In this document: piece after piece, positions 32,417-62,350 of the stretch
Layout of the letters: every line of letters starts with the position of its first letter
Position numbering within the stretch: the stretch's first letter is position 1
Assembly (NCBI GenBank): GCA_044892505.1
Contig: CM097882.1
Span: forward strand, 407,278,001-407,342,000
Length of the DNA: 64,000 bases
Reading direction: 5' to 3'
Origin: Schmidtea nova
Lineage: Eukaryota
The notes under the pieces: model-generated
The model's input: only the letters and a program-made list of their open reading frames with translations
Databases searched by the model: none
Told to the model about the DNA's origin: nothing
Translations under genes and position numbers: made by a program

Positions 32417-32953
32417 TCAATCAATGAACAATATTCTATTCCGAATTTCTTCTATATCCATTTTCTTCCGAATAAACGACAATTTTCTCTTTAACATTTC
32501 CTTTGTTATTTGTAGGAGTTCAGGATTTTCTTTCTGCATGGACTCCTCGCTGGGTGCATCATCAAATTCGTTTTTGATCCTTGTTTCCACTACAATTGTG
32601 GCATCCTCGTTTGCTGCTCGTAATATTTTTCCGATTGCTGGCTCCTTGATTTTCCATGACGAAAGTTTTTTGATCTCCCACCATATTTGATCATTTTCGC
32701 CGAGAATTTCCACCGTTCCTTTGATTATGTGGATATAGTATTCCTCTTTATTTGATATTTTTATTTCCTTTGTCATTTGGAATTTTGATCTGCCGATAGT
32801 GAATACTTGGACTTTCATTTTTCTGTCGTTCAACTTTAGATAATTTGGGATTTGTAAATTGTTGACCATCTGGAATCTTCTTTGGCCGGCATGATTTCTC
32901 ATCATCTTCAGATAACTGTCGTACGTTTCTTTGGCCCATTGTATCTGCTCCAT
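32417..32953 (-). CDS. Hypothetical 178-aa protein, probably TE-borne
   Basis: Open ORF with protein-like composition. Upstream minus-strand TATATAA (about 33160) and CCAAT box (about 33220). Confidence 0.5.
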   Translation of the reverse strand: MEQIQWAKETYDSYLKMMRNHAGQRRFQMVNNLQIPNYLKLNDRKMKVQVFTIGRSKFQMTKEIKISNKEEYYIHIIKGTVEILGENDQIWWEIKKLSSWKIKEPAIGKILRAANEDATIVVETRIKNEFDDAPSEESMQKENPELLQITKEMLKRKLSFIRKKMDIEEIRNRILFID

Positions 32954-33688
32954 TTTTACTAAAAAGTTAATAATTTAAATTTGAGTTAATTTAATTTTGA
33001 CGCTAGGACTAAGATGGAGTACCCAAAGGATACTTTCTTAGTCGGTAGCGGTATAAATAAAAATATAAAATTACCGATTTAATTGAAGTTTTCTTAATTC
33101 TTTGAAATTTTAATTTTGTTTAAACTTGTTTTAAGTTTTATGATGTCTGAGTTTGTCTTATATACCCCCCCTTTTGATTTTTCTATCCCTTTTCTACCCC
33201 CTCACTCTCTTAGTATTAACCAATCAAATTAATTTCCCACTTTCCTCGTGCCGAAGAGTGCAGATTCACATGAAACAATTTAAAAGAAAATGTCACTAGA
33301 TACTAAACAATTAATCTACTATAATTGCATGCAAATAATTGTATCTCACTATACAAACGTCTCCTCGTAATCGATCCAAGGTCTCGGGGTCTCGGATTGA
33401 TTCGTAGAATGTCTTTCAGTTTTTCGAATTTCAAAGATGATGACCGATATGAGAATAATGACAAATATTGTTATAATGATAATTGTTATTAATAATGTTA
33501 CACAGAAATTCGTTTTCCGTAGATGAAGATGATATAGTTTTATTACTTAGGTTTAGAAGAATTAGGTTAGAAGAATGGGTATTCTTCAGTCGTTTCCTAA
33601 TTACGTCATTGATGATTTACTCGCTATTTTAATTAGAGTCGTTAGAGGTAAAATGAATCTAACTCCATCTAATCGTCGGGTTTTGATA

Positions 33689-38106: not shown

Positions 38107-38340
38107 AATGAAACCTTTTTTATTTTGAAAATGATGATATTTTATTACTTAATGAAACCTTTATTATTTTGAAAATGATGATATTTTATTACTTAATGAA
38201 ACCTTTATTATTTTGAAAATGATGATATTTTATTACTTAATGAAACCTTTATTATTTTGAAAATGATGATATTTTATTATTTTGAAAATGATGATATTTT
38301 ATTACTTTTTTAAACCTTTATTATTTTGAAAATGATGACA
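38107..38340. repeat. 44-bp tandem repeat, about 5 copies
   Basis: Unit aatgaaacctttattattttgaaaatgatgatattttattactt. Confidence 0.85.
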
Positions 38341-39269: not shown

Positions 39270-42200
39270 ATGGGGTTAGTCGAAGTCAATTCTGACTTGA
39301 ACGACAACCATGTCATAATTAAATTAGATGTAACAAATCTAGAATTAAAAACGGTCTCACTGCCGGACATTTTGTTAGAAAAATTAAATTTTTATGTAAA
39401 TAAATTAAAATCTTGTAAAATCCAATTTTGCCTTAAGGTGGAATTTGAGAAAGATGATGAGTTAAAATCTTTCGTCATCTCAAATTCCGCCAGAGTTTGA
39501 AGTGATACCTTCATTGACGAAGGTATCTCTAATTTAAATGAGAAGATAGTCCAAATTAATGAAAAAGGTAGTAATTGGACTATCAGTAAGATTGAGTACA
39601 TAAGTTTTGTGCTCACTAAATTTTCAGAAATAAGTCGGTTAAGTGGCAATAGTTTTATTGAAACACCTAGGTCATTAAAAAATTTAAGCTGTCTCATAAA
39701 TGTAAAAAATACTGATAATCTTTGTTTTGTATATAGTTTCTTATCTATTGTTAAGTATGATAGTGTCAATAGGCTATATAGAAATCGTCCCACTTCATAC
39801 GATCTTTCACAAATTAAATTTGACCCCAATGACATGCCGATGAAGCTGGCAAATATAAGTAAATTTGAACATCAAAATCCCGGCTATAGTATTAATGTTC
39901 TTAGTTATGATGAAAAGGCCTTGATTGACATTTCCGACGAAGATGCAGTTTTAAAGCATCCTTTTATTGACATAATTTACCGAAGTAAGGTAGTAGGAGA
40001 AATACCTATAAATTTATTATTAATCGAAAATAAAAAAACTTACCATTATGTGGCTATCACAGATTTAAATAGATTCCTTAATTGTAGAAATAGTTCAATA
40101 ACTCGTGTTAGGATTTGTAGCCAGTGGTGTCCTAGGTGTTTAAACGGTTTCAGGAATGATGAGTCTTTCAAGAAACATAGGGGTCTTTGTGATAGAAATC
40201 AGCTGGGTACTACCTTGTACACATTGCCCAAAAACAAATATCTAGAATTTAGTGATTGGAAGGAAACCGTGACTCATCCATTTGTTATTTACGTCGACTT
40301 TGAGGATATCTTACCTAAGGACACCCGTTACTTTCAACGCCACTTGCCTATTTCTGCCGGTTTGCTTTTAATTAATAATTTTACCGGTGTAAAAATTTAT
40401 AAATCATTTTTCGGATTAGATTGCGTCGATCAATTTCTTAAAAAAATTGAGTTGATTAGTAAAAATATTGTGACGCCGTTTTATTATAAAAATTATCAAA
40501 AGAAAATGATAATTACTGGCCTTCAACAATTACAGTTTGAAAACAGCACAATTTGTTATTTGTGCAATAAACCTTTAGTTTGTCCAGTTAGGGACCATGA
40601 CCATTTTACCGGTCTATTTCTTGGCGCAGCTTGCAAAGCTTGCAATGTATCAAGGCAAATTAGACATACCCTTCCTGTCATCTTTCATAATTTAAAGGGT
40701 TATGATCTACACCACATCTTAAAATTTGGCCTTTCGAAATATCATTCCTGGAATATTAGTTGTGTTCCATTGACCAGCGAGAAATTCGTTAGTCTTTTTG
40801 CTAGGATTGACTCCTTAACAGTTAAATTCATAGACTCTTACCAATTTGTCAGCGAGTCTTTAAATAATGCTGTCAAAACTTTAACTTCTTTACCCTTGAC
40901 CGAATCAGAATTTCAGGGTACAATAATAACTCAAAGGGAATTTTTCGTTATGATACGGCTACTTCTTTAGAAGTTTTACAAAACACACATGAATTACCTT
41001 CTATCTGGAAAGACGTGAAACCAGATGAATATGAGACAGCTCAGAGAATTTGGCGTGAAACCTCATGTACATCGCTTTTGATTACATGATGGTTTATTTA
41101 AAACTCGATGTCTTCCTTTTAACTGATTATTTTCAGCAATTTAGAGCTAAATCTATTGCCCATAACCTACTAGAGCCACTAAATTTCTTGGGAATTCCGG
41201 GTATGTCTTGGAATTCCGCCTTATTAGCTTTAAAATCTCCAATTGAGCTCCTCACCGTTATGGAGATGTATAATTTTTTTGAGGGCGGTATCCGTGGCGG
41301 CTTAACCTTTGTAAAAACAGGCCCGAATACCGCATTGCTTTACATAGATATAAATAATTTATATGGTTGGGCTTTAAGTCAGCCTCTACCATGCAGTAAC
41401 TTTGAATGGGTCACAGATGACCAATTATTAAATGAAATTATTGCTGAATGTACATCGGTAGATCTAGATGCACTTCATTATGGTTACACCATAGAAGGGG
41501 ATTTGGAAATACCGGCATCGATTCACGACAAACTGGATGATCTTCCAGTTGCCGCTAAAAAGATGTGTGTACAGGGTTCGAAAGTAGAGAAGCTGCTGCT
41601 AACGCACTATCCAAAGAGGAACTATGTTCTTCATTGGAGGCTTCTGCAACAGTTTATTAAATTAGGTGTTAAAATAACTAAAACACACAGAGCAATAAAA
41701 TTCACAAAAGAAAAAATATTTGAAAATTATATAAATACAAATACGGCGTTACGAGCAGCGTCGTCAAATAAATTAGACAAAAATTTTTATAAATTACTTA
41801 ACAACAGTCTTTACGGCAAGACTGTTGAAAATATTAAAAAACGAATTAATTTGTGTTTGTGCAATTTGTCGCAGAAATTGTTGACTTACTGTTCCAAACC
41901 GTCTTGCCGAAAATCCACTAAGATCGACGATGACTTGATTTCTGTTTTGTTAAGGAAGGAATCAGTGTGTTTGGATAGACCTAGTTACAATTGTCAAACA
42001 GTACTAGATTTATCCAAACTTAGGATGTACCAGCTGCAGTATGAAGAGTTGCAAAAATATCGTGACGACTTCAACTGCGAAATTAATATCGTTGCTGGGG
42101 ACACTGATTCCATCTTTTTGGAAATTAAAAATCTTTCTTTAGACTTACTCTTACCGGCTATGATTAGGGACAAACTTCTGGACACTTCGAATTATGACCC

Positions 42201-42552
42201 AAATCATCCTTTATACAGTAGGAACCATGATTCTGTCATTGGAAAATTCAAAGACGAGAATAAAGGGCTACTGTATGAAGAGTGGGTGTTCTTAAGACCA
42301 AAGTGCTATAGTTTAATGGGTGATGAGGCTTGTATGAAAGCCAAGGGGATTTGCACGAAAGATGCTGGACTAACACATCAGTCGTATCTTGATTGCTATA
42401 TAAATAATAAAATATATACAGTCCCCCAGTTCAGAATAACTAGTAAGAACCACCAGTTATTTACTATTAAAAATAATAAAAGGGCTTTGACTTGTAAGGA
42501 CGACAAGAGTAATTGGATAGATAAAAATAAGTTTGGCATATGGCCATTATAG
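39270..42552 (+). pseudogene. Protein-primed family B DNA polymerase (pPolB), disrupted
   Basis: Exonuclease motifs YVDFED, FHNLKGYD and YLKLDV. EndoVII/HNH-like RDHDHFTG...AAC..CN. Polymerase motifs YIDINNLYG, KLLNNSLYGK and GDTDS. Stop at about 39500 and frameshifts at about 40940-41065. An Asn-rich extension probably starts near 38699. Confidence 0.95.
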
Positions 42553-43759
42553 AGGCGGTGACACCAATATATTTGTAGATGATCCAGCAGAAGAAATCAA
42601 TGATGTACCGACATTGCCGATGGATGAAGATCCTTATGCCTTTTATGAGCCTCCGGACCAGCAATATTTACTATGATGACGAAAAATCAAAAAAAAGATT
42701 GAGAATGAACAATCGGCCCTCTTCAGGGCCACAATTCGCGATTGTATAAAATATTGCGCAATCAATTAAAACTAATATTGTTTAAATTTTAAAGATTAGG
42801 AAAACACGGATAATAAAAAGAAACAACGATTTGTGAACCATAATTATTGATTGTAAAAAGAGATTCAAAAAGATATGAAAAGGATATTAACCTGGGAATC
42901 AAACAGAGAGAATCAAAAAGATTTGTGAAAGTTAAAAAATGGTCCTCTTTAGGACCATAATTTTTGATTGTATAAAATATTGCGAAATCAATTAAAATTA
43001 TTACCGTCTTCTTTTATGTTATTGATTTAATGTATTTAGAGTTATTTTGTTATTTATTTTTAATTTTCTAAGTTTTTATTATCATTTTTATTATTTTTAT
43101 TATTCAAAGTTAATATTATTATTATTATTATCAAAGTTAATATTATTATTATTATTATTCAAAGTTAATATTATTATTAGTATTATTATTATCAATTTGC
43201 ACGCGGGGTGTTATAGAATGAAAGAAGCACAACGCGCGTTCAATGAGTACTGTTATTATCTTAAAAAAGTAAAGACAAAGAACGCGCGTTCAATAGTTAC
43301 TCATATTTTTATTAAAAATCCGCACACACACATGAAATATAATCGTGTACATAATTTCAAATACAAGTTATATTAGTCTTTGTTTCGGCGCACATGCATT
43401 GCAATGTCTTTGTTTACGTTGCACATGGATTGCAATGTCTTTGTTGTAATTGGGGAAGGAAATAGTCGTTGAAAAATTATAACACACACACATCATGCTT
43501 ACCTCACAATTACCTTTTGTTTGATATGTATATTATAAAAAATGTAAAAGGATTGTAACACACACACACCATGCTTACTTCTCAATTACCTTATTACACA
43601 CGTAGTTTGAAAAGTTTGAAGGTTTTTGACTCCTTGAAGGTTGAGCACCCACCATACACCTTCGAGGGTATGACCATTGGATAGACCTCTCTAAGACCTT
43701 TCGAATGATACCCTTGTTTGAAGGTTTGATCTTATTTGACCCTTGGAAATTTAAATTTA

Positions 43760-43927
43760 GAATTTGAAATGAGTCATCGATGACGTCATAAAATTCAAAT
43801 TTGAAATGAGTCATCGATGACGATATCGACGAGTCATAAAAAAATTTCTACCCACCCGGGGGTTCTTTGTTATGAGTCATTGATGAGTCATAATGTCTTT
43901 GTTTCCGGCTCCACACTTCTACCTACT
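43760..43927 (-). repeat. Right terminal inverted repeat of Polinton A with AP-1/CRE motifs
   Basis: Reverse complement reads AGTAGGTAGAAGTGTGGAGCCGGAAACAAAGACATTATGACTCA, nearly identical to the sequence from 50129. Confidence 0.9.
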
Positions 43928-44830
43928 TTTATGTACACCAAATCTCCAACTTTAATATCATGTACATGCACACGTTTGTCATAGCACTCTTTATGCTTCT
44001 TGATTATGCCTTATTTTCAATCCCGCTTGGACCCATACTGATTGCAGTCTTTCCTGCATTATTACTTTGTAATCGGATACGTCCATGTGTTGTGAGATTG
44101 GTGGTTGAAACTTTAAGTCAATCGGCATATTGTTTCGTCGTAGGTACATAAGATAAAATGGTTTTTCACCGGTGCTACCATTCACTGCATTTCGAAATGC
44201 AAACAAACATGGCTTAATGAACAAATCCCAATCTTTTTGTTTCCTGTTTACGTAAGACGAAATCATGTTAATTAATGTTCCATTAAATCTTTCGACTAAC
44301 CCATCTGTTTGAGGGTGATATTGGGATGTATTAAGTTTTAGGATTCCGAATAATTCGGTGATAGATTTAAATAATAATGCTTTGAAAGTTTGTTCCTTGG
44401 TCTGTGAGCAATGTCTTGGTGCTCCGTACTGAAATATGATGTTTTCTACAAATATTTTCGCCACAGTTTCTGCTTTTTGATTCTGCATTGCATATGCTTT
44501 CGGCCATTTTGTTAAATAATCACAAAATACGATGATATATTTATTGCCATTGGTTGCTTCTGGTAGTGGACCAACAATATCCATTGCTGTCATTTCCATT
44601 GGTGCTACCGGCGCGGGCATAGGTTTCAAAGGAAATTTTATTTTTCTCCATGTATTTCGCCTGGTCAGACAAACTTCACAAGTGTGACACCATTGTCTGA
44701 CGTCTTGCTCTATCGTATCCCAGTAATATTTCTGTTTTAATCTTGATAATGTTTTTTCGAGCAGATAAGTGTCCTCCCAATGCCCCCATCATGATACAAC
44801 AACAGTAATGCTGTTCGATGTTTTGTCGGT
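43928..44830 (-). pseudogene. Gypsy integrase
   Basis: YHDG..GGH...C..C zinc finger; AMDIVGPLP; DYLTKW; YHPQTDGLVERFN; WD..I...LFAFRN. Confidence 0.93.
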
Positions 44831-45050
44831 ACTACTATTACTAAGTTTTCATTTTTCACACATTTCAACAAACCGTCGGGGATGACGTATTTATGTTTTT
44901 CTTCTGCAATGTGCTTCCAGTCACTTTCTCTTTTTATTGTGACAGCATGTTTACGCAATTGATTCAATTCAACAACGTTTTCCTTATCACACTGTAATTC
45001 CTTCATATTATTTGCCGTTTTAATTGCCATAAATATTGTATTTTCATAAT

Positions 45051-46632
45051 TTAATTCATTTTGAATAATATTTTCTTCAGGGATTCTCGACATTGCGTCC
45101 GCATTTCCGTTTGACTTCCCGTACGGTACTTAATTTCGAAATCGTACTCTTGTAATGCAATTGACCACCTAATCAGCTTGCTTGCTGAATCTCTATGCTT
45201 CATTAACCATTGTAATGGATTATGATCCGTAAATACAATAAACTTTCTCCCAACCAAATATTGTCGAAAATTAGTTATCCCATATACTAATGCTAGAGTT
45301 TATTTTTCGATTATGGAATAATTTTTTTTCATGCGGTTTTAATGAACGGCTTGCATAAGCGATTACGTGAGCGATTATTAAAATATTGCACCTTCTAATT
45401 GCTGTCCCAGTACTGCTCCTAATGCAAAATTGCTTGGATCAGTCATCAGTATAAATGGTTTTTTGAAGTTCGGACATCTCAATATTGGTTGATTGATAAG
45501 ACTCTTTTAATTTATCAAATGCTTCTTGTTGAGCTGTTGCCCATTTGAATTTAGTCTGCTTTTTTAGCAACATGTTTAAAGGTTGTGCTACATGCTAAAA
45601 ATTCCTTATGAATTTCCTATAATAGCTCGCTAATTCAAGAAATGGTCGGACCTGGTCTGCATCTTTGGGATCGGATACTTTTTAATCTTTTCAATATTTT
45701 CTGGGTTTGGTTGTAACCCTCTCCGTGAAATTATATGCCCTACGTAAACAACTTCTGATTTTCCCCATTCACATTTTGAAGGTTTTATTTTTAGATTGGC
45801 TTCTTTTAGCCGTTTGAACACTATTTCCACTTCTTTTAAGTGTTCCTGAAAATTATTATATTATCTATATAGACTAATGAATGTGGTATATCACGCAAAA
45901 CAAAATTCATACCTCTCTGGAATGTAGCTGGTGCTCCAGTTAGACCGAATGGTAGCACATTAAACTCATATAGTCCTTTACCATCTGAAAATGCCGTTTT
46001 TCTCCTGTCTTCCTCTTTGACTTTAAATTGGTTATATCCTTTTTTAAGATCGATTACTGTAAAGAATTGTACTTCTCCCATCTAATCAAACATTTCTTGC
46101 GGAACTGGTATAGGAAATGTGTCTTTCTTGTCACTTGGTTTAATTTCCGATAATCGACACAAAATCGTAATTCACCGTCCTTCTTTTTCACTACTACTAT
46201 TGACGATGAGAATGGTGATGAACTATCTCTTATTATTTTAAATTCCTTCATGGCTTTAATTTGCCGATCGCTTTCCTCTTGATGTGGAATTCTGTACGGT
46301 CGTATTTTTATAGGGGTTTTATCAAGCAATGGTATTTCGTGTTCAATTATCTGAGTGAGTCCTAGATCATACTCATGTTTCGCAAATGCATTTTTATACC
46401 TTTTCAATAGTGTCGCAAATCCTTGTCTTTGTGCTTCTGTTAGATCATCACTTGTCACTTGTGGTTCTTTATAGATTTTGATATTTCTAGGTAGCTTTTG
46501 CGCTTCTTCCTCTTTCATTTTCGTCAGTTTTCCCAACTTTGTTTTGGGTTTCATCTGAATTGATTTTGTGCTACAATTAGATATTCTTACTGGCACTGTT
46601 TTGTCTTTAATTTTTACTATTTCGTCACACAT
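45051..46632 (-). pseudogene. Gypsy reverse transcriptase and RNase H (frameshifted)
   Basis: KKKDGELRFCVDYRKLN; IDLKKGY; LPFGLTGAPATFQR; YIDNI (YxDD mutated); TDPSNFALGAVL; FTDHNPLQWL. Confidence 0.95.
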
Positions 46633-46718
46633 AGGTACGACTTACTTTTCTATTAGTTTTTGATTTGGTTCGAATATACACTCTTCTTCGGAAACATTCT
46701 CTACATTAGCGTAGTATA

Positions 46719-48071
46719 TCACTTCGCTTTTTGGTGGTACTTCCAACGTTTATTTAAAAAGACCTCTCCTGCTTCATGAGCTACTTCATCAGTCTGCCTT
46801 TTTATTAATTTTCCCGTCTTTAAGTCCAGTGAGATTCCTTGTAATTGTTCCATGATGTCCATGCCAATCAAACATTTGACAGGGCTTTTTCTCATTACAG
46901 ATACCCAATGAATTACTTCCTGATTTCCAATGTTCAACTTTACTTCCAATTTTCCAATAATATTTAATACGTTATGCGTCATTGATTTAATAATTTTTGT
47001 TGTTTGCTTTATTTTCGTTTTTTCCTGTCTCGTTAGGAAACTTTCCGATACTATACTGTGACTCGAGCCTGAATCCAATAACGCTTCCACTTTTCTTTCA
47101 TTAAACTGTATGGATACTCTAGGTTGTTTTCCGTCAATTTCTATTGTCATCAATGCATAACTACATGGTAACCCAAGCATGTTCTTTTTTTCAATTTCGG
47201 CACTTGATGGCTCAATCTTTTCTAGTTCGATTTTAATCTCATCAACTGGCTTCATTTCTCTCAACTTTTCACTTGGGTATATTGGAGCTGTTGGTATAAA
47301 TGTCGGTGTGTACCATTTAGAAAGAATGTCAATTCCTGTTAATTTTGGCATTAGTTCAAGCAAGAACCTAGTCTCGGATTCTATTCTACTTTTCATTATG
47401 CTCCTTCGAAACACTTTCTGCTCTGACCTGCCGCCACCGTTCTCATTATCATGACCATTATTTTTATCCTCGTGATCGCATAGTGATTCTTCGCTTCTTT
47501 GATCATTTCTCAATTGCGCCCGTACATTTGCCATTTCCTTGTATTGGTGACTTGTAATGAAGAATCTCGCTAAAAATGGAATACAACCAATAATCATTTT
47601 CCATGACCATCCGGAAATTGTATATATCCTGTGAGCGGACAATACTTGTGATATTATCACCTTTACCGTTACTGCAATTACATAAATACCAATTAAACCT
47701 GCACATGCTTGTCCCAAAAACATAAAATTTCCCCAAATCTTTTCCATTGTTTTGTAAGTAGCTCGTTTAAAATGATAAGGTGTCAGCAGGTATTCGTAGT
47801 TAACTTTCCCTTCTCCATTCGGCAATATCGTATCAATCATTTCTGAAATCACGCGTTCCTTTTTTGACGGAAATAACAAATTTCTTTGGGCTTCTTCGAT
47901 GTCTTCGTTCGCATATAAGCCCATTTGTGCCATTTTATTCATTGATGTAAAATTTATTAAATATTCCAAATTCGTCAATTCCAATTTATCCGATGTTTTT
48001 ACTCTTCGGTAATCTGGTAGCGCTATCCATCTTGTGCTTAGCGATATAATGGAGCTAATAATCGATAACAT
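46719..48071 (-). CDS. Single ORF fusing the glycoprotein C-terminal/TM region to a retroviral-type aspartic protease
   Basis: N-half: GLY..EDI......LLFP, WGNFMFLGQACAGLIGIYVI..VK, GWSW. C-half: VEALLDSGSSHSIVS...CLIGMD. Confidence 0.9.
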   Translation of the reverse strand: MLSIISSIISLSTRWIALPDYRRVKTSDKLELTNLEYLINFTSMNKMAQMGLYANEDIEEAQRNLLFPSKKERVISEMIDTILPNGEGKVNYEYLLTPYHFKRATYKTMEKIWGNFMFLGQACAGLIGIYVIAVTVKVIISQVLSAHRIYTISGWSWKMIIGCIPFLARFFITSHQYKEMANVRAQLRNDQRSEESLCDHEDKNNGHDNENGGGRSEQKVFRRSIMKSRIESETRFLLELMPKLTGIDILSKWYTPTFIPTAPIYPSEKLREMKPVDEIKIELEKIEPSSAEIEKKNMLGLPCSYALMTIEIDGKQPRVSIQFNERKVEALLDSGSSHSIVSESFLTRQEKTKIKQTTKIIKSMTHNVLNIIGKLEVKLNIGNQEVIHWVSVMRKSPVKCLIGMDIMEQLQGISLDLKTGKLIKRQTDEVAHEAGEVFLNKRWKYHQKAK

Positions 48072-49295
48072 GGAAAGGTTTTTGGTTTAACTTGTTCATC
48101 CAGCAATATTCGGGTTATCGGTTCCATAAATCGTAGTTTCCCGCCAACACTTACTGGCAATTCACATCTACTAAATTTGGGTTTGTAACCGCCATCGCCA
48201 TTCGATTTCGGAGTATTCTTTATTCAATTTACAATCGTTCAAGATCATTTCTCTATATATGTTCTCCATGGTATTTTGGCTAAAATGAAATAAATAATCA
48301 ATTTTATTATTAAAGTAATGAGTTAGTTTTATATCATCCCTGTGGATTCTTGTTTTCGCTTCATGTACAGTCGTTTTTGCCACATATACTCCTTTGTAAT
48401 TTGTTACATAGACTGTTTGACCACATTTGCTCGTAATCTCCTTTTTAATAAAGCGCATGCTGTCTGTTGGCAAGGTTGACATTAAAACCGTTGCTGTTTG
48501 TCTTGTCCAGAGTGGAGTTGACCTGACTGTGCCATTTTGTTTATAATTCATGTTAAAGTTGTCTGGTCTCTCCTTAAATTGCTCTCCGGTTAACTCTTTG
48601 AAATTCATTATTTTTAAATGAGTTAGGTTACATATATTGGTTTTAACATCGTAAACGAGAATTGACTCCCCCGTGTGACAACTAGTTTGCTTCATATTAC
48701 AAAATGGATGAGTTTGTAGTTTTCCATTATCATCATCAAAAGATCCTTCGAACATTCTCAATTCGGTTAAGTATTCCTCTATTACCAGTGTGTGTTTAAT
48801 TATTTTCTCATTTATTTTATACGGTTCACCTTCACAGTCACCATCTGATTTCATCACTCCCTCCACCACTAACGTTTCTCGAATTTGATGATTTAATTTC
48901 GCTTTTAATCGAATTTCAGGACTGATTTTTATTTCTCCCGTTTGAAAGGCTGTTGAGCAATTTTCTGGCAATACATCCACCGGTCGTGGAATGGCGTGCA
49001 TTTTGATTAATGACGTATGGCTCCATTTACCACAGAAGAATACAAAAGTGGTTCGTTTTACAATGCATTCTCTAACTTTGGTACCCCGTAAATCTGATTC
49101 TTGATACACATGGTATTTTACTTCGTTTTCAATCTTTAATTTTTGAGGGTATGCGTCTGGACACTCTGACATATCAACCACTGAGTAAATTTTCCCCATT
49201 TCTGTTTGTGAACAATCGTATGCCACCAATGACGTTGTTTGTGCAATAACTGCACATAGGATAATCATCATGAACATCATCCAAGGAAATATCAT
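48072..49295 (-). pseudogene. Chuvirus-like (class III, gB-type) envelope glycoprotein ectodomain
   Basis: Signal peptide followed by LVAYDCS; conserved Cys pattern (FFCG, DGDCEG, KCG, CKLN); LTHYFNNK; ELPV....RFMEPITRIL in a shifted frame. Confidence 0.85.
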
Positions 49296-49388
49296 CGTCT
49301 TCCTTAGTTTTGGACTTACTCTTCCGTTTAATTGCCTTTGCGGTGAATCATTTTCCGGTTTCTTTCTTTTCTTTATTATCGATAAATT

Positions 49389-49796
49389 TAATGCTTTCCA
49401 CCCTCCACGCTCTCTCAGCCAATTAATTAAAGACTCATTTATTAGTCGAGCCGCAATGTCAATTAAATTATCAAGCTTGTCTGACTTTGTAAATGCATGA
49501 ATACCGATCTCTTAAACAACGTAGGTTAGAATTAGTAGCACTACTTCTTTATCAATCCCATTTTCGATCAACTTTTCTATTACTTCACATTTACAAAAGC
49601 TATCCTCTTTGCCAAATTTCCGCACTACTTCTGGAAGTCTGATTTTCACTTCCTCTACTATTCCTTTCAATTCCTCTTCCGTTTCAGTCTCTATTTTTAG
49701 AATTGGGTATACGACTTTAACCAAATTTCTTATTACGTCACTTGTTTCGTCAACTTCCTGCTTTAATTTTATTAAGGTTTTCTTCATCTCATACAA
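49389..49796 (-). pseudogene. Bcl-2-like domain in frame with the glycoprotein
   Basis: ORF 49796-49512 continues in frame past one TAA into EIGIHAF...LDNLIDIAARLINESLINWLRERGGWKAL (BH2-like). It is preceded by EVIEKLIENGIDKEVVLLIL (degenerate BH1-like). Confidence 0.62.
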
Positions 49797-50164
49797 TGTT
49801 CTAGACTTCGCATTCGCACTTTTTATTTTTCTTTTTTCGATATTCGTATCTTCAATAACTGTCTTTCTGCTGTCTGAGCATTATTATTAACCCCCTTTTC
49901 ACCATCATAACCATCAGTAACTATTTCAATTTCGCTTTCCTTTATTTCTTCTGTATCTGAAAATTTGACTTTGTCAAGCATCCTCGAATTATATTCTTTA
50001 TTTGCGATTATGCGATTTATTAAATACCCCTGACTTCCATTAGTACTTAAATACCCATATTCATCCAGTTCCTGTGACACACATCCGCAGTCATATAAAT
50101 ATTCATCGTCATCCAATTCTTCATCTTTAGTAGGTAGATGTGTGGAGCCGGGAACAAAGACATT

Positions 50165-50515
50165 ATGACTCATGCGTGGGCGGAAAAAAAAGAACAAAGA
50201 CCCCCCGGGGGGGGTAGCAAAAAATTTTTTTGATGAGTCATCGATGAGTCACCGATGAGTCATCGATGAGTCATACTTTTTTTGATGAGTCATCGATGAG
50301 TCATCGATGAGTCATAATTTTTTTTTGATGAGTCATCGATGAGTCATAATTTTTTTTTTTCAAAAATTTTTTTTCGCGCCAAATTTTTTTTTCAAAAATT
50401 TTTTTCGCGCCAAATTTTTTTTTCAAAAATTTTTTTCGTGCCAATTTTTTTTTTTCAAAAATTTTTTTCGCGCCAATTTTTTTTTTTTTCAAAAATTTTT
50501 TTTTTCAGGCCAAAT
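50165..50515. promoter_or_regulatory. AP-1 (TGAGTCA) array followed by E2F (TTTCGCGCCAAA) array in the Polinton B terminus
   Basis: Nine GATGAGTCA units at 50232-50349. Three TTTTCGCGCCAA plus two variants at 50371-50514. Function is inferred from motif identity only. Confidence 0.6.
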
Positions 50516-50914
50516 TTTTTAAGACAAATTATTTTTAGTCAAATTTTTTTTTTTCAAGACAAAATTCGAGTAAACAAAAATATTTACAGTAGGTGTGCAA
50601 ACTAAACAAAGACATTTTTTTATATGTGTGCATGTTTAATTAATTATTATTTGTCAAGTATGAAGCTTTTGCACTTCAAAACCATCACAGAAGAGGTTCT
50701 GCTTCCAGGGTTCTGATCGCAATGTTCTGCTTCCAGGGTTCTGATACTAAATGTTCTGCTACTAATTATTATTTAATTATTATTTTTTCAAACTAAACAA
50801 AGACTTTGCAACACGTGTGCAACATGAACAAAGACATTGCAATACACATGCAAACTAAACAAAGACACATGCAACACATGTGCAACATAAACAAAGACAT
50901 TAAAAAGACAAAAT

Positions 50915-51490
50915 TTATTTATAAATATATCGTTGTGTACGTGTACAAAATTTAGTTTCAAAATTATTTACATCTGAATTATTACTCGGAATATTATTCA
51001 TTGTAATATTATTCATCGGAATACTAGTATTTGTCGGAATATTATTCTTTGGAATATTTGAAATCTTCTCCAGCCGTATGGATGCCGATAACATCAGTAT
51101 AATTATTAATATAAATAAACTTATATAATGTAAAACAATTGCTGTTTTATCGTTTTCCACTGTTTGATTTTGATTTTGATATCTGACTTCATATTCTTTT
51201 TTAACAATAGTTTGATTTATACATTTTAATCGTTCAACTATTTTCATCATTATTTTGTTAATCATTTTTTCAATATCTTTATTTATCACATTATTTTTGG
51301 AAGGACATTGATTACATTGCAATTTTATTTGATTGCATTCAATGTTTGAGTAAAGACATATATCGTTATAACTCGCGCAAGTACTATCTTGTTTTCGAAA
51401 CGGATGGGATGATTGACAATCTTCCAAAGCTTGTTCTCCTTCAGTATTGTCAACACATAATAATAATAAAATAACTATAAATAATTTCAT
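50915..51490 (-). CDS. Type I membrane protein (signal peptide, Cys-rich ectodomain, TM)
   Basis: MKLFIVILLLLCVDNTEG signal peptide, several Cys, TM segment IVLHYISLFILIIILMLSA. Confidence 0.75.
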   Translation of the reverse strand: MKLFIVILLLLCVDNTEGEQALEDCQSSHPFRKQDSTCASYNDICLYSNIECNQIKLQCNQCPSKNNVINKDIEKMINKIMMKIVERLKCINQTIVKKEYEVRYQNQNQTVENDKTAIVLHYISLFILIIILMLSASIRLEKISNIPKNNIPTNTSIPMNNITMNNIPSNNSDVNNFETKFCTRTQRYIYK

Positions 51491-51554
51491 TTTAAAAACA
51501 AAAACTAATATAAAAACTAAATTTGTTCATACTAAAATATTTATTAAAAAACAA

Positions 51555-51971
51555 TTATGCGTATCTTGCATTGTCAACTCTCCAAATCGGAGTAACAACA
51601 TCTTTTTTATCAATCTTGTACCCTTGAATAATAACTGTAACGAACCAGTGTTCTTGATCCATGAAATCAATAGTCTGAAAAGCATCATGGAACCGAGTTT
51701 TTCTGTTATTGATGTACATTGTTTCTTTACAAGCCAAATTAACATTCATCTTTGAAAATAATCGATTTAATGCGATAATATCTTCCTTGGCAATAACTAC
51801 AGCAAGACTGTCATATAACGATTTTGTTAACTTTACCGGAAATGATAATCGATACGGTATTTCATTAACCAAAAAATAAAGTCGGCTGTCATAATACATC
51901 TGAACTGGTTTTACCTCAGTCTGATATATTTTTTCATCGCATATATCCAAATTTTGTTTTCGAGATTGCAT
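51555..51971 (-). CDS. Conserved Polinton hypothetical protein
   Basis: Intact ORF with diverged homologues at about 22370-22640 and 28267-28674. Confidence 0.8.
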   Translation of the reverse strand: MQSRKQNLDICDEKIYQTEVKPVQMYYDSRLYFLVNEIPYRLSFPVKLTKSLYDSLAVVIAKEDIIALNRLFSKMNVNLACKETMYINNRKTRFHDAFQTIDFMDQEHWFVTVIIQGYKIDKKDVVTPIWRVDNARYA

Positions 51972-52255
51972 GTTTTAAATAGTGACAATATTTTTTAAAA
52001 TGTCTTTGTATTTATACTGATGACTGGATGTCTTTGTCCAATCATATTCATGCATTTGTTTTGCACACAGTATGCACATGTATTGCAATGTCTTTGTTGT
52101 ATGCATGCATGTATGTATTAATTATTTATTTATTTATTATGAAGCTTTTTCATATAAAAACAATCACAGAATAAGTTCTACGTCCAGGGTTCTGTTTGCA
52201 ATGTTCTGCTACTAATGTATTTACTTATTTGTTTATTTCACAATTATTTTTATTA

Positions 52256-52296
<41 letters not shown>

Positions 52297-52523
52297 CTTT
52301 CATACAACACTTTCTTACTAATTATTTAATAAAAAAACTAATTACTATTTTATATAGTTAATAAAAAACTACTAATAAAAAATGTTTTACTCAAAAAGTA
52401 TTACTAATATTTAAATAAAAACTGAAATAAAAAAAAAATAAAAACTAAAATGAATAAAAAAACTTTTATTAATCTAAAATAACAAAAATGACAAAACTAA
52501 ATACATTAAACATGCAAATCAAA

Positions 52524-53192
52524 TTATTGTTCGGCGTTTTCTTTTTCTTTTTCTTCTTCTTCTTCTTCTTCTTCTTCTTCTTCTACTTCCTCCTCCTCTT
52601 CTACAACACCACCATCAGCCTGTCGATGGCATTCGGCACAATCCGGTGATTGTGGCGATTCCATACAATCATTAGATTCATCGGATGGATACGGACCATC
52701 GAGTGTTGGTGCTTCCAAATCTGTTGTTGTTGTTGTTGTTGTTTCATCTGCATCAATCGGCTCCGGAGTTGAATTGGGCCAGGTTTCCTTGATTTGCTCT
52801 TCTTCCTCATCGATTTTGTCCATTTGTTGGACTTCATATAATCTGAGGGAATTCCTCAACACCCAAATATTAAACTGTCGAATACGTTCGACGCAGCTCC
52901 CGCATTGGTACGCACAGATAATGTGCTCGGGTACCCTTGGGAGATCCGTATTCTGGCTCGTCATGTGATCGAGCACAATCTGGTTTATATCGATTCCCGT
53001 CAAGATCATTATCTTGTACGGGAACATCTCCGGAGCCGTGTAGACCAGAGCCGGCATAAGATTTGGGAACAGTTCCTCCAATTTCCGATATAACACGTTC
53101 ATTAATTTATCTAAAATAATAATAATATAAAATATGAAAAATAAATAATTAAAATCCTTACGGCTTTTAATTAAAGTTTGGGTCATCGACAT
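52524..53192 (-). CDS. Acidic, Cys-containing hypothetical protein, probable 51-nt intron (53111-53161)
   Basis: CAYQCGSC and CAECH motifs, poly-Thr and poly-Glu tracts. GTAAGG...TTTTAG segment near the 5' end. Confidence 0.7.
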   Translation of the reverse strand: MSMTQTLIKSRKDFNYLFFIFYIIIILDKLMNVLYRKLEELFPNLMPALVYTAPEMFPYKIMILTGIDINQIVLDHMTSQNTDLPRVPEHIICAYQCGSCVERIRQFNIWVLRNSLRLYEVQQMDKIDEEEEQIKETWPNSTPEPIDADETTTTTTTDLEAPTLDGPYPSDESNDCMESPQSPDCAECHRQADGGVVEEEEEVEEEEEEEEEEEKEKENAEQ

Positions 53193-53367
53193 AATTGTGA
53201 ATATAAACTATGTGAGATTGTTCATAGTATATATATCAAAGAAACACACATGATTTGAAACACACATGATGAACCAATCAGAATGAAGCATGCACAACAT
53301 GTCTTTATTCTATCGATACACACAGAGCCAATCAGAATCGTGCATTTCTAATGCATCGATATTGCAG

Positions 53368-53835
53368 TCATGAGTCACATGTTAGTATGAAATCAACAAA
53401 GGCTTTATCTTCTATAATTGATTTTATATCGTAAATAATATCATCAACTATAGTACTATAGTCTTTGTTTTTTAATCCTAATATGACTATTTTTCCGCTT
53501 GCAAATATATTTACACACATGGGATTATATTTGATATATCTCAAAGCTGGAAATAATTCTGGCTCGTAAACACATGGTATTAATTTCGATAATTCATTCA
53601 AATTACAAATAAATCCTAAATCCGCAGTTACAGTTATCGATTGTATCTTTAAATCATAAAACTCAACTTGTTCGTCACTAATAAATTCCCTGCATCCCAT
53701 TATTCTATATCTTCCTGATTTAAAGTATATTATTGGGTATTTTCCACTTCGATCTACAATTTGCTGGGGTTTTCCATTTGGAAATTTCATGTGCGATACA
53801 TCGGTCTTACCCTTGTAATTAATGTTTCTAATCAT
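53368..53835 (-). CDS. TATA-box-binding protein (TBP)-like
   Basis: IQSITVTADLG...NLNEL...YEPELFPAL...IFASGKIVILG is a TBP repeat. A degenerate first repeat reads IRNIN...YFKSGRYRIMG. Confidence 0.88.
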   Translation of the reverse strand: MIRNINYKGKTDVSHMKFPNGKPQQIVDRSGKYPIIYFKSGRYRIMGCREFISDEQVEFYDLKIQSITVTADLGFICNLNELSKLIPCVYEPELFPALRYIKYNPMCVNIFASGKIVILGLKNKDYSTIVDDIIYDIKSIIEDKAFVDFILTCDS

Positions 53836-53928
53836 TACTGAAAATATTTTTAAATGAAATTATTACTTTGATAACCGTTATTTAAAACAAATATAAACAA
53901 TAATATTAAGAAAATATAATTTTTAAAT

Positions 53929-54552
53929 ATGGAATTAAGAAATGATGCAGTGTTTCAAATTGTTGGTCCGAGCGGGAGTGGAAAAACTTTATTTGTTTGT
54001 AAATTATTGCAATCGAAATTATTCAAGTCGAAATTTAATAATATTTATTGGCATAGGGGTGCTGACGACGAAAGTGGAATGACACAAGATCAGTTTTGTA
54101 AAATAAAAATGACAATCATTAAAGGTTTCGATAAAAACTGGTCATCTAGATTAAAACATGGTGATGTGATTATCATTGACGACTTGTATCAAGAAGCAAA
54201 TAAAGAAAAGGATTTCAATAACTTATTTACGAAAATCAGTAGACATAAAGGTGTTACTGTTATTTTTATAACTCAGAATTTATTTCATCAGGGCGGTAGT
54301 CATCGTACTCGTAATTTAAATGTTCAATATCTTGTTGTTTTTAAAAATCCTAGAGATGCAACAGTTATTGATTTTCTGGCAAGACAAGCTTATCCTTCTA
54401 ATCGTAACTTTTTGATTGAAGCCTTTCAAGATGCTACAAAATCTCCTCATGGATATATTTTCCTTGATTTTACTCAACAATGCAGTGATGATTTAAGGGT
54501 TAGAACTGATATTTTTAACAGTGAAGGAGCCATGGTTTATAAACAAAGTTAA
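53929..54552 (+). CDS. A32/FtsK-like packaging ATPase
   Basis: Walker A GPSGSGKT, Walker B IIIDDL, SRH, FITQNLF, RT.NLN.QY.V.FKNPRD. Confidence 0.95.
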   Translation: MELRNDAVFQIVGPSGSGKTLFVCKLLQSKLFKSKFNNIYWHRGADDESGMTQDQFCKIKMTIIKGFDKNWSSRLKHGDVIIIDDLYQEANKEKDFNNLFTKISRHKGVTVIFITQNLFHQGGSHRTRNLNVQYLVVFKNPRDATVIDFLARQAYPSNRNFLIEAFQDATKSPHGYIFLDFTQQCSDDLRVRTDIFNSEGAMVYKQS

Positions 54553-54572
54553 TTCTGTTTGCAATCGTAATC

Positions 54573-55091
54573 ATGTTAATGAAATCTCGAGTAAAGTTTG
54601 AGCCATTGATAAAGGCTAGAACAAAGAAAGCTGGAAAGAAAACAAAGAAACTATTTACAAAGAAATCTATAAAGAAATCAAGAAAGAAATCCAAGAAAAT
54701 ACTTATGGATAATATTCCCAAAAATAATCAAATTAAATTGAAATCTAATGCTAAACAAACACATCATCGGAGTTTACCGTTTTTTAATGCATTACTTAAA
54801 GCCCCTTCCGTTAGAAGAATGGGTATTCTTCAATCGTTTCCTAGTTACGTCATCGATGATTTACTCTCTATTTTAATTAAAGTCGTGCGAGGTAAAATGA
54901 ATCTAACTCCATCTAATCGTCGTGTTTTGAACAAGCATAAAAAACCATTGTTGTCGCTAGTAAACTCAAAAAATAAAAAACTTATGCGCAAAGTAATATA
55001 TAAACAACAAGGTGGTTTTATCGCAGCATTGTTACCATTAGCATTATCTTTATTGGGAGGTGCTGGTTTATTGGGAAAAAGAAAGTCATAA
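54573..55091 (+). CDS. Basic Polinton core/membrane-lytic-like protein
   Basis: Lys-rich N-terminus. C-terminal QQGGF followed by amphipathic IAALLPLALSLLGG. Confidence 0.8.
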   Translation: MLMKSRVKFEPLIKARTKKAGKKTKKLFTKKSIKKSRKKSKKILMDNIPKNNQIKLKSNAKQTHHRSLPFFNALLKAPSVRRMGILQSFPSYVIDDLLSILIKVVRGKMNLTPSNRRVLNKHKKPLLSLVNSKNKKLMRKVIYKQQGGFIAALLPLALSLLGGAGLLGKRKS

Positions 55092-55094
55092 ACA

Positions 55095-55316
55095 ATGGGT
55101 CAATCATTACCTAATTTAAATTTAAATTTTAAATCTTCTTGTTGTAATGGAGAAGATCTGGACGAACCCAAAAGACGACGCCGGTTTCGGTGGAGTCGAA
55201 AAGCTAAGGAAAAAAGCACAGAAGTCGAAACAACAGACACAAAGTTGGTTATCGGGGCAACTTGCATACAGTCTAAACAAACCGATGCTGAAACGGTTTC
55301 CAACTCGAGCATATAA
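55095..55316 (+). CDS. Small overprinted ORF, possibly lipid-anchored
   Basis: MGQSL...SSCC...KRRRRFRW. Starts 4 nt after the upstream stop and overlaps the integrase in another frame. Confidence 0.45.
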   Translation: MGQSLPNLNLNFKSSCCNGEDLDEPKRRRRFRWSRKAKEKSTEVETTDTKLVIGATCIQSKQTDAETVSNSSI

Positions 55317-56192
55317 AACATATAGAATCAATGATTTGTGGCAAATGGACTTGATGGAAATGATTCCGTATTCCAAAATTAACAAGGGGTACAAGTATAT
55401 TTTAACATGTATTGATGTTTACAGTAGATTTGCTCGAGCAATTGGAGTCAAATCAAAATCTGCTAATGATATGGCAATTGCTATCAAGACAATGATGAAA
55501 AAGGATCGGCCAACTAATTTACAAACCGATTTGGGTAAATTTTAATTTAAATTTATAAATTTAATATTTTTTTAGGAAAGGAATTTTACAACAGTAAAGT
55601 CAAGGAAGTAATCAAGGGAATAAATCATTATTCGGTATTCTCACAATTCAAAGCCGCTCATGTCGAGAGATTTAATCGAACTTTGCGTGATCGATTGAAA
55701 AAATACTTTGTTTTTAAAGGCAATAAAACCTGGATTAATGTCTTACCTCAATTGATTCATAGTTATAATCATAGTGCTCATCGGGGTATAAATGGCAGGA
55801 AACCGGCAGAAGTAGTTGATACTGAAAATATTGTGAGTGAAGTGAAAGTAAAGAAACCAAAATATAAAGTTGATGATCATGTTCGAATTAGCAAGATTAG
55901 TACATCGCCATTCGTTAAAAATTTTGATAATAATTGGAGTGATGAGGTATATCAAATATCGAAAGTCAACACAGTGCAGAATCCTGTCATGTATACTATT
56001 CGTGACTCTGATAACAATATAATCAGTGGCAAATTCTACGAACAAGAATTACAAGTTATTCCTAAACCTACGATATTTAGAATTCAAAAGATTTTGAAGA
56101 CTAAAATGGTGGGTAAGGATAAACAATACTATGTTAAATGGCATGGATATAAAGAACCATCATGGATCTCGTCAAAAAATCTAGTAAAGTGA
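55147..56192 (+). CDS. Polinton retroviral-type integrase with C-terminal chromodomain, two exons (intron 55535-55575)
   Basis: LWQMDL, YILTCIDVYSRFA, TDLG/KEFY restored by splicing, HVERFNRTL, YYVKWHGY...SW. Spliced length 334 aa. Confidence 0.93.
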
Positions 56193-57205
56193 ATTTTTAC
56201 ACTATTTTACCGAGCAATAGTTGTCCGAATATCCATCCGGATAATACTGCAAGTAAATTCATGGTGAATTTACCTAATCCAATTTATTTAAACGGAAATT
56301 GGGAAGTTGCTCTAATGGATTTTACATTTGTTTACCAACCTTTTCCATTTTATAGTCAATGTCAAAATTATTACACACAAAAGGAAAAAACTGTTGCAAA
56401 TGCGTTTTTCTCGATATATAATAATAGTGGCCATCTGAATGTTCCAAATCACACAATTGATCCAGATATCGAATTGTGGCAACGAGGTGGAAAAATAATT
56501 CTCACGTGTAATATTGTTCCGTATACAATTACATTTAACGATCTTGATGTAGCAAAACGAATGGGAAGTAATAAACTGACAATAACATGTAATGAAGAAG
56601 AATGTTCATTTCCAGTTTCGAAAAACTTGGCCAGTAACGAAGAAGAAATAATAACTTTTAATGTATCGTATTATCGTGATGTAGAGCATGTATTCACATT
56701 CAAGGAGGATTTGTATATAACGCATCTAGATGAATTACAGAAATATATTAGCGATAATTGTTCGTATATTTTTACAGTTGTCGAATTAAATAAATTGTTC
56801 AAATTCAAACTCAAAGATTTAATCACTAAAGTTCGATTTGATAAATACTTGGTGAATACATTGGGATTAGATAAGGATAAATTTACAGATAAAAATATCA
56901 TTTCTGGTGTTCGTCAACCGAAAATATCTAAACTTCATCAGCAATTATTCGTGTATACAAACATTATCGAACCCATTATTGTTGGTGATTCTTTGGTTCC
57001 TTTACTAAAATCGGTATGGATTGAAAAATACGATGCTGATGAAATTGTTCAAATAGTAATGGATAATCCAATGTATTTATCTGTTTCAACATCCTGTATA
57101 AACAATATAGAAATAAATATCCGGGATGACAGCGGAAGATTTATAAAATTTCCAAAAGATTCAAAAACTCACTTAACTCTACATTTTCGAAAAATCGATG
57201 AGTAA
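56162..57205 (+). CDS. Polinton minor capsid protein (penton)
   Basis: FYTILPSNS...NT.S.F.V.LP.PI.L.G.WEVAL; LFVYTNIIEP..VGD..VPLL; IEINIRDD.G..I.F; LHFR. Confidence 0.92.
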   Translation: MDLVKKSSKVNFYTILPSNSCPNIHPDNTASKFMVNLPNPIYLNGNWEVALMDFTFVYQPFPFYSQCQNYYTQKEKTVANAFFSIYNNSGHLNVPNHTIDPDIELWQRGGKIILTCNIVPYTITFNDLDVAKRMGSNKLTITCNEEECSFPVSKNLASNEEEIITFNVSYYRDVEHVFTFKEDLYITHLDELQKYISDNCSYIFTVVELNKLFKFKLKDLITKVRFDKYLVNTLGLDKDKFTDKNIISGVRQPKISKLHQQLFVYTNIIEPIIVGDSLVPLLKSVWIEKYDADEIVQIVMDNPMYLSVSTSCINNIEINIRDDSGRFIKFPKDSKTHLTLHFRKIDE

Positions 57206-57581
57206 TCCCGATATAGTTTCAATGTACAGTGATAGCCAAACTGGTGGCGAATTACCGTATTTTGTCGGTAAACAGTACGGATCAGGTTGGTTGAAAACTA
57301 TTGGGAGATTTGCACTTCCAATTCTTAGACGACTAGGTAATTTCGGAATGAATACTGCCAAGGACGTTATCATGAAAGATAATAAAATATTACCGTCATT
57401 GAAAACCAATGCTTTGGCCGCAGTTAATAAAGCTATACCTGCTGTAACACAAATGCTTCCTACAATTACAAGTATGTTTACAAAAAATAAGGAACCGGAA
57501 TCTGTACCGGTAGGACCAAGACGTAAACGAAAGCGTATAAACAAACGAATGAAAGGTCATGGAACTATATTTGAAGAATGA
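57198..57581 (+). CDS. Polinton basic core-like protein
   Basis: QTGG, QYGSG and KGHG adenain-type sites. Stop overlaps the capsid start (ATGA). Confidence 0.82.
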   Translation: MSNPDIVSMYSDSQTGGELPYFVGKQYGSGWLKTIGRFALPILRRLGNFGMNTAKDVIMKDNKILPSLKTNALAAVNKAIPAVTQMLPTITSMFTKNKEPESVPVGPRRKRKRINKRMKGHGTIFEE

Positions 57582-58541
57582 TTTGCGGTAAATCTGAATT
57601 ATGTCTTTATGATCGACCATCACCTCAAGCAGTTATTGAATATGGGGCGTTTGAAGATGTGTTTCCAATGAATTCAATTACAGATAGTAGAAATGATGTC
57701 GAATTTTACATTAATGGTTCTCAAACCGAATATTTGGATTTGAACGATACATTATTGTCCGTTACAATCAAAGTTGTTGATAAAGATAAAAAAGCTCTAG
57801 CCGATGCGAGTGATGTAGTTCCCAATAATTATTTGTTTCATACACTTTTCAAAGATGTAATTCTCGGATTTAATAATATAAAAATCGAGGGTGGAAACAA
57901 TACATATGCACACAAGGCAATAATCGAAACTATTTTAAATTATACGAATGATGCTAAAGAAACATGTCTTACTCCAATGGGATATGGTTCAGCTGACGAT
58001 CGGAAAAAATGGATCAAGGGATCTAAACTTTTCAACATGTGTTCGTCATTACAACTGGATTTTATGGATCAACCTAAATACTTACTTCCCGGAGTTAATG
58101 TACATATTAGATTGAAGCGATCTGATTCTGCATTATCATTGAAATCGGTAGCTGGGAAACCAGTTATCCAAATAGTTGATGCAAAATTAATGGTAAGAAG
58201 AGTTCGATGTGATTCTTCAGTATTGGCCGGTCATCAAATTGGATTAAATAAAAAACATGCAATTTATCCATTAAAATCAAAAGAAATCGTATCGTTTGCA
58301 ATCGGTAAAGGGGCATCGTCATTTTACAAGGAGCAGATATTTGGAGATAGACGAATGCCTAATTTCATTCTTGTGGCTTTTCAATCCGAAAATCAATATA
58401 ACGGATCTTATACCGAGTCAACATCTACATTCAAACATTTTAATGTGACTTCATTAACATTGTCGAAAAATACCGATTATCGTGAAACATATACCCAGGA
58501 TTTTGAAAATGATAATTTTAGTGCATCATATATGCAAAGTC
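57578..58541 (+). CDS. Polinton major capsid protein, truncated by insertion of copy C
   Basis: Closely similar to 34720-35680. Similarity stops exactly at ...ATGCAAAGTC (58541). Confidence 0.93.
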
Positions 58542-58650
58542 AGTAGGTAGATGTGTGGAGTCAAACACAAAGAAATGAGTCATAATGCGTGGGCGTAAAA
58601 ATTCAAACAAAGACTTTTTAGTTACCGAGCCCCCCCCCGGGGGGGGGGGG

Positions 58651-59300
58651 GGTTCGCGCCAAAATTTTTTTTCGCGCCAAAAATTTTTTTTTCAAATTTT
58701 TTTTTCGCGCCAAAAATTTTTTTTCAAATTTTTTTTTTCGCGCCAAAAATTTTTTTTTCAAATTTTTTTTTCGCGCCAAAAATTTTTTTCAAATTTTTTT
58801 TTCGCCCCAAAATTTTTTTTTTAAAATTTTTTTTGCTCCAAAATTTTTTTTAACACAAATTTTTTTAACCCAAATTTTTTTCACACATTTTTTTAACACA
58901 AATTTTTTTAACACAAATTTTTTTTTAACACATTTTTTACACACAAATTTTTTAACACAAATTTTTTTAACACATTTTTTTTTGACACAAATTTTTTTAA
59001 CACAAATTTTTTTTTAACACAAATTTTTTTAACAAATTTTTTTTTTAACAAATTTTTTTTTAACACAAATATGAGTCATCGAAAACTTTGCAACACGTGT
59101 GGAGTCAAACACAAAGAAATGCGTGGGCGTAAAAATTCAAACAAAGACTTTTTAGTTACCGAGCCCCCGGGGGGGGGGGGGGGGTTCGCGCCAAAATTGT
59201 TTTTTTTCAAATTTTTTTTTTCGCGCCAAAAATTTTTTTTTCAAATTTTTTTTTTCGCGCCAAAAATTTTTTTTTCAAATTTTTTTTTTCGCGCCAAAAA
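58651..59300. promoter_or_regulatory. Two arrays of E2F-type TTCGCGCCAAA sites
   Basis: Five copies plus one variant at 58651-58810 and four copies at 59185-59300, with about 30-35 bp spacing. Confidence 0.6.
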
Positions 59301-61756: not shown

Positions 61757-61792
<36 letters not shown>

Positions 61793-62045: not shown

Positions 62046-62078
<33 letters not shown>

Positions 62079-62250: not shown

Positions 62251-62350
62251 AGATGTCAAAAAAGAAAAGACTAATTATTAATCACAAATGCATTCTCTTA
62301 GCCAATGATAAAAATAAATTAAATGAAAATACATATATTTTTGTACGACA

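Follow-up and report, generated by a model that had tools for sequence, protein, structure and literature searches.

Introduction

Giant gypsy-like LTR retroelements of the Burro / GYPSM1 type are known from dugesiid planarians and, as described in PMC6431247, which cites Jurka 2007 and Grohme 2018 on them, they carry a BCL2-like motif that is preceded by a SUMO-like domain and separated from the protease by an in-frame Env. A 2019 review notes the BCL2-like motif of Burro and calls meddling with apoptosis worth testing. Flatworm elements with a GAG-ENV-POL order and a gB-type Env, including Smed_errantivirus_1, have been catalogued as well (PMC13524379), and in the main text of that paper the strings 'bcl' and 'apopto' have 0 occurrences. 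Furthermore, the planarian element Burro1 carries B-IAP, a RING/BIR cargo that reportedly shields stem cells from apoptosis (Lee et al. 2026 Dev Cell, as cited in PMC13465017).

The window analysed here is the whole stretch of 64,000 nucleotides of Schmidtea nova DNA shown above, and on its minus strand, at 49389..49799, it contains a broken Bcl-2-fold domain of a retroelement polyprotein, identified by Pfam, by a family profile and by the model of a sister copy. Viral Bcl-2 proteins are stand-alone genes. Those of gammaherpesviruses (ORF16/vBcl-2), ASFV, iridoviruses and the lancelet adintovirus (Bcl2) have the same fold (TMq 0.42-0.56) and are likewise host genes captured on a mobile genome, but the planarian domain is part of a polyprotein and its putative anchor is the signal sequence of another protein.

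The element to which the domain belongs is a compact Burro-like Gag-Env-Pol LTR retroelement. It shares with Burro / GYPSM1 a polyprotein made of Gag with CCHC knuckles, a SUMO-like (PF11976) and a BCL2-like domain, and an Env placed before the protease. However, Burro exceeds 30 kb and encodes 4,873-5,140 aa, whereas the element described here measures 17 kb with 3,401 codons, is devoid by Pfam of the BIR, RING, ankyrin, MATH and dUTPase domains, and adds a post-integrase signal/membrane protein and an exonuclease ORF2. Smed_errantivirus_1, according to PMC13524379, has the same gene order and Env type and a span of about 14.8 kb; in its row of the supplement, 51 of 58 Env residues are identical by eye to the Env found here, a match that by itself points to a planarian host. 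Burro1 B-IAP is likewise an apoptosis-regulator cargo of a planarian LTR element, but it is a RING/BIR protein with a reported function.

The layout with BCL2 before Env is already published for Burro, which limits the surprise, and the first-pass annotation of this DNA had overrated its arrangement. What is new here is the fold, the selection acting on it, and a conserved signal-like segment (11/11 lineages) predicted to tether the domain to a membrane. The element works like the Burro BCL2-Env module without the size and cargo of Burro, with a Bcl-2 fold lacking a canonical BH1. The Burro motif is thereby extended to a full, selected fold that a single genome carries in eight or more multi-copy families, compact BIR-less ones included, and whether it is a second, independent anti-death cargo of planarian retroelements becomes directly testable. 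Within the coverage of our literature search, which left subscription papers and bioRxiv supplements outside, neither the idea of the signal serving as an anchor nor a test of the Bcl-2 domain was found. The reading that we propose, and to which we give about even chances, is that this Bcl-2-fold domain, located between the Gag/SUMO-like part and Env, under purifying selection and predicted to be tethered to the ER, dampens the death of the host cell.

Architecture of the Retroelement

The genome was searched with the 54 residues that follow the stop codon of the window copy, and among 150 scored matches, out of 841 candidates, 19 by hand count are stop-free within a 3,401-codon frame. LTR pairs of 855-903 bp, 99.1-99.9% identical, flank all four full copies studied, one of which spans 17.0 kb, and a 4-bp target duplication is present in two of the three full copies looked at. 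ORF1 encodes, in this order, a retrotransposon Gag, CCHC knuckles, SUMO/ubiquitin-like domains (PF11976 in a sister copy, E=8.8e-4, below the cut-off), the Bcl-2 domain, a gB-type Env (PF24664), protease, reverse transcriptase (RT), RNase H and integrase. The traits of GAG-ENV-POL, HSV/gB-type Ty3/gypsy errantiviruses are present, namely LTRs, a primer site and a gB-type Env between Gag and Pol. In ORF1 and ORF2 of one full copy, Pfam returned no BIR, RING, ankyrin, MATH or dUTPase match at E<=0.5.

Two further products accompany these. ORF2 (L022:6688-8136, with a remnant in the window at 32417-32974 on the minus strand) encodes an ISG20-like 3'-5' exonuclease (PDB 7yw5, E=2.6e-7), and a Pfam search with it gave no match. 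Downstream of the integrase, in four of four families, a second signal-like segment is followed by a stretch without annotation that leads to a membrane helix (L022 at about 5100-6291 and the ORF1 ends of L075, L076 and L077), and judging from the sequence this whole region is likely a second surface protein. In addition, derivatives of families C and D (L078, L079, L081 and L083, and likely L080) are missing about 6 kb, the part that reaches from Env into Pol; the first four retain Gag-side sequence, the Bcl-2 domain, the hydrophobic segment and ORF2. These Env/Pol-less C- and D-like derivatives, several in number and older, are likely non-autonomous.

The Window Copy

The window copy shares about 95% identity with full copies. 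Its BLAST alignments over 43928-50129 contain 24 frame-shifting gaps, some of them compensating; it is dead and incapable of making the protein. All of its parts lie on the minus strand: an acidic linker with the end of the ubiquitin/SUMO-like domain, severed from Gag by a Polinton and frameshifted near 49864 (49800..50128); the Bcl-2-fold domain; a frameshifted gB-type Env (PF24664) at 47451..49229, detected in two pieces with E=1.1e-30 and 4.9e-26; an aspartic protease at 46836..47129 (RVP, E=3e-8); reverse transcriptase and RNase H with many frameshifts, approximately bounded by 45051..46400; and an integrase at 43928..44788, cut by a Polinton end at 43928. A 3' piece of the same element, comprising the end of ORF1 and the start of the exonuclease ORF2, resumes at 32420..33555 and is 93% identical to a full copy.

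The other interruption is marked by a Polinton terminus within the retroelement (50129..50140, plus strand), whose terminal motif recurs inverted 34 kb on; there the Polinton ends, the Gag half resumes, and the 6-bp flanks match at five of six positions. The alternative that a Polinton captured a piece of the retroelement is ruled out, since the 5' half of the element resumes past the far end of the Polinton. Polintons are nested both in the retroelement and in each other (window 50129-64000 continuing to L112:205, 33566-43927, and 58542) and, conversely, a full retroelement copy (L021/L029) lies inside a Polinton of the same family. One Polinton carries a TBP-like gene at 53368-53859 on the minus strand (Pfam TBP, E=3.8e-14). 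Elsewhere in the window, at 26707-28071 on the minus strand, another Ty3/gypsy pol that looks unrelated is present in fragments (RT, RNase H, integrase).

A Bcl-2 Fold Hidden by a Private Stop Codon

The read-through peptide quoted in the first-pass annotation was recovered from the minus strand at 49350-49880, with an X at the break, and it contains, as described there, one stop only, at 49512..49514, inside alpha5. This stop is found in the window copy alone; the codon is open in 38 of 38 oriented sisters, as the annotation had suggested should be checked, and these come from 40 family loci, 39 of them orientable, picked from top matches and long frames, so that the counts lean to intact copies. 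Programmed read-through of the stop is ruled out by the same 38 stop-free sisters.

Among 24,736 Pfam models the best for the read-through peptide is Bcl-2 (PF00452, E=1.8e-4, profile positions 7-100 of 100), with scores of 22.3-22.4 bits in the window copy and a sister copy, below the gathering cut-off of 31.4, which is passed by copies of families B and C. When the halves around the stop are taken each alone, the downstream one reaches only E=0.073 and the upstream one has no match, so the stop hides the Bcl-2 domain. Against PDB, the top two matches of the single read-through sequence are designed helical repeat proteins, followed by Bax at E=0.019; since Bax is outranked by designed proteins, the single sequence is no proof, and the proof comes from the family profile and the fold.

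A family profile built from nine element rows aligns with Bcl-xL ungapped over 69 residues (E=2.2e-7), and the best 60 of its 194 matches all belong to the Bcl-2 family. A first structural model based on nine rows was poor (pLDDT 45.8, Foldseek TM about 0.25) and was superseded by one from 25 rows, 23 of them element-borne and two unassigned fragments, with no known cellular Bcl-2 among them and with a natural unbroken sister copy as the query row. This second model (pLDDT 82.5, pTM 0.77) is a helical bundle around a central alpha5 hairpin. The matches listed by Foldseek against PDB were all Bcl-2-family chains, led by BAK (TMq 0.60) and Bcl-2 (TMq 0.59) with probability 1.00, and against BFVD the best named rows are herpesviral vBcl-2 proteins (TMq 0.55-0.56); Foldseek E-values were 7e-3 or weaker and rmsd values 4-6 A. 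A captured Bcl-2 fold, proposed at first pass from motifs, is thus borne out by Pfam, family profile, model and Foldseek matches, and another fold, which would have spoken against it, was not obtained. We regard the Bcl-2 domain as almost certainly genuine.

Within the domain, all on the minus strand, a helix in the BH3 position (alpha2, 49635..49679) belongs to the start of the Pfam match and corresponds to helix 59-76 of the model; a degenerate BH1 at 49536..49562 is without the W, G or R of NWGR; and the BH2 motif W-x4-GGW lies at 49398..49421. The latter, whose conservation in sister copies had been singled out for checking at first pass, is present in every one of 39 family copies and throughout the eight families; across the 25 rows its W, G, G and W are at least 90% conserved, the GG being invariant.

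The Env Signal as a Putative Membrane Anchor

The domain had also been said to run straight into the Env signal, and this part does not stand: 34 residues with a basic cluster separate BH2 from the hydrophobic core. The intervening polar linker lies at 49296..49397 on the minus strand (basic cluster 49359-49373); the linker is 20-45 residues long. It leads to an internal Env signal sequence (49230..49295, minus strand; hydrophobic core 49242-49295, KD17 2.66; small -3/-1 residues) that is predicted to stay as the anchor of the upstream product, and Env itself starts at 49229. All 11 lineages compared have a 17-residue hydrophobic core and, mostly five residues further on, small -3/-1 residues at one site; this candidate cut site was picked by eye with the sequences already in view, and the 11 lineages are related. 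It precedes the conserved xYDC of Env by two residues. Small -3/-1 residues occur in the background at 172 of 1747 sites, and net basic charge precedes the hydrophobic core in 10 of the 11 lineages. Four hydrophobic segments follow the domain in four of four families, and they fit an alternating topology.

These features suggest a topology in which the signal would direct the polyprotein to the ER, signal peptidase would cleave about five residues past the hydrophobic core, and Env would pass into the lumen, while the Gag-UBL-Bcl-2 product would retain the hydrophobic segment as a cytosol-facing tail anchor. The membrane helix of Env would then bring Pol back to the cytosol, and the second small membrane protein would be lumenal. 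By general signal-sequence biology, such an anchor would sit in the ER rather than in mitochondria. The first-pass annotation had suggested that the Env signal could double as a C-terminal membrane anchor, which is plausible. Tethering of the upstream Bcl-2 product by the cleaved Env signal, likely at the ER, is in our judgement the probable arrangement and, if true, the shared signal/anchor would be an economical tie of Gag to Env at one membrane.

Selection on the Domain

Ratios of dN to dS were obtained by Nei-Gojobori counts uncorrected for transitions, and those among distant families are saturated. Over the 123-codon domain, the comparison with family A2 gives dN 0.18 and dS 0.86, a ratio of 0.21 (Fisher p=5e-10), and that with family F a ratio of 0.31 (p=2e-6), dS being near saturation against family E; the proposed dN/dS below 1 therefore holds, at 0.21-0.31, for the nearest families. 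The A2 values for Env and the upstream region are unreliable because the A2 copy is frameshifted there. Within the family, shared variants give 0.32 for the domain (10 N, 9 S), 0.30 for the upstream region and 0.08 for Env; private variants in the domain give 0.61, the shared ones being too few to be separated from these.

In the clade of the window's family the alpha4-alpha8 core is 58% and the signal 67% identical, vs 28-38% for the linker, and the whole domain is 50% identical to families E and F, again vs 28-38% for the linker. The domain changes much faster than Env or RT: comparison of families C and D gives 48% identity for the domain, no more than the 52% of the linker, against 87% for Env and 95% for RT. 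From these codon and residue comparisons, the constraint on the domain appears real but moderate.

Another explanation is that the domain was captured once and is now a passenger, no more than a folded in-frame spacer. In its favour, the domain has the weakest constraint among those of the element, with a dN/dS like that of its neighbours, and the window's family scores below the Pfam cut-off. Yet eight families, mostly saturated at synonymous sites, have neither lost nor shortened the domain, its core is better kept than the linker in the clade (58% vs 28-38%), and it persists in the Env/Pol-less derivatives, which makes a mere spacer improbable.

Relatives and Origin of the Domain

Genome searches with Pfam Bcl-2 and with divergent domains revealed seven further families (A2, B, C, D, E, F and G) in which Bcl-2 is followed by a linker, then by a hydrophobic segment and Env, so that the domain is kept in eight families of the genome, that of the window included; in one family survey, 3 of 22 loci did not pass the motif filter. 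When 1.8 billion representatives were searched with a profile, 10 matches were obtained, among which P0005, P0008 and P0012 combine domain, signal and Env, and P0006 has Gag, the ubiquitin-like domain and the Bcl-2 domain and then ends. Four metagenome proteins (P0005, P0006, P0008 and P0012) thus retain the element-type domain, the remaining matches being two short fragments and four cellular Bcl-2 proteins. A word-indexed search for homologues among longer proteins yielded 805 candidates, none at E<=0.01.

In a 25-row tree, 12 element domains are separated from the 13 other rows by one branch (94/86, not starred), which fits a single capture event. The nearest cellular group is joined at 92/95 (not starred) across long branches, and BOK-like host genes as the sister group are compatible with the AU test (p-AU 0.19). 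The Bcl-2-family genes of the host are found at L033-L041, L044, L052, L058 and L061, BOK-like L034/L036 included; some of them form a divergent group, in part duplicated, whose BH1 is altered.

Families B, C and D (L075, L076 and L077) have an extra helix just before the Bcl-2 domain, which presumably reads like a BH3-only motif and might bind the groove of the domain itself. This helix, together with BAK as the top structural match and the BOK-like sister group at p-AU 0.19, would suit a pro-death or pore-forming module, with a BAK/BOK-like core or a released BH3-like helix aiding particle exit. But the scores of BAK and Bcl-2 hardly differ (TM 0.60 vs 0.59), the upstream helix is part of the long alpha1 in the model of the window's family, and hundreds of killing copies would burden the host; we hold such a killing role to be very improbable.

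Function of the Domain

The predicted structure has one long alpha1 and, after helix 59-76, a loop and helix 85-92 instead of a separate alpha3, whose absence from the model points to a remodelled groove. None of 21 rows has the BH1 glycine, and in the clade of the window's family a hydrophobic residue takes the place of the arginine. Changes of the BH1 glycine and arginine disable BH3 binding. Our literature search for papers on such BH1 changes and BH3 binding found none. As far as motifs can tell, the loss of BH1 counts against a textbook anti-apoptotic role.

Bcl-2 folds of the poxviral A46/A52/K7 type act as scaffolds against innate-immune or stress signalling. A comparable non-apoptotic job, as an immune or stress-signalling scaffold or as a matrix-like module tying Gag to Env at the budding site, would account for the loss of the BH1 signature throughout, for the remodelled groove, for fast change at a constant position and for the invariable fusion of the domain to Gag on one side and the Env signal on the other. 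It sits less well with structural neighbours that are cellular and viral apoptosis regulators and with a near-invariant BH2, and cellular Bcl-2 homologues of the genome (L038, L040 and L041) are also without the BH1 glycine; on this evidence we consider a non-apoptotic job rather unlikely.

An anti-death role is favoured because the structural kin of the domain are apoptosis regulators and because the other cargo of Burro1 is reported to be anti-apoptotic. The domain would dampen the death of cells that host the element's replication, by a route without the canonical BH1 contact, and from the model and these analogies the case for such a role seems to us evenly poised. A broader scenario is tentative, and we find it doubtful as a whole: that a clade of enveloped planarian retroelements, BIR-less ones included, may put a single hydrophobic segment to two uses, first to serve Env as its signal and then, once cleaved, to anchor the tail of a Gag-linked Bcl-2 that has lost the BH1 glycine and, through a non-canonical contact at the ER, blocks host cell death, with Env/Pol-less derivatives spreading the module as non-autonomous passengers.

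As a separate observation, an open frame with a BIR domain, mostly of 399 codons, accounts for nearly all of 150 scored matches (1,295 candidates), at L084-L089 and in many other places; it is another multi-copy element with apoptosis cargo.
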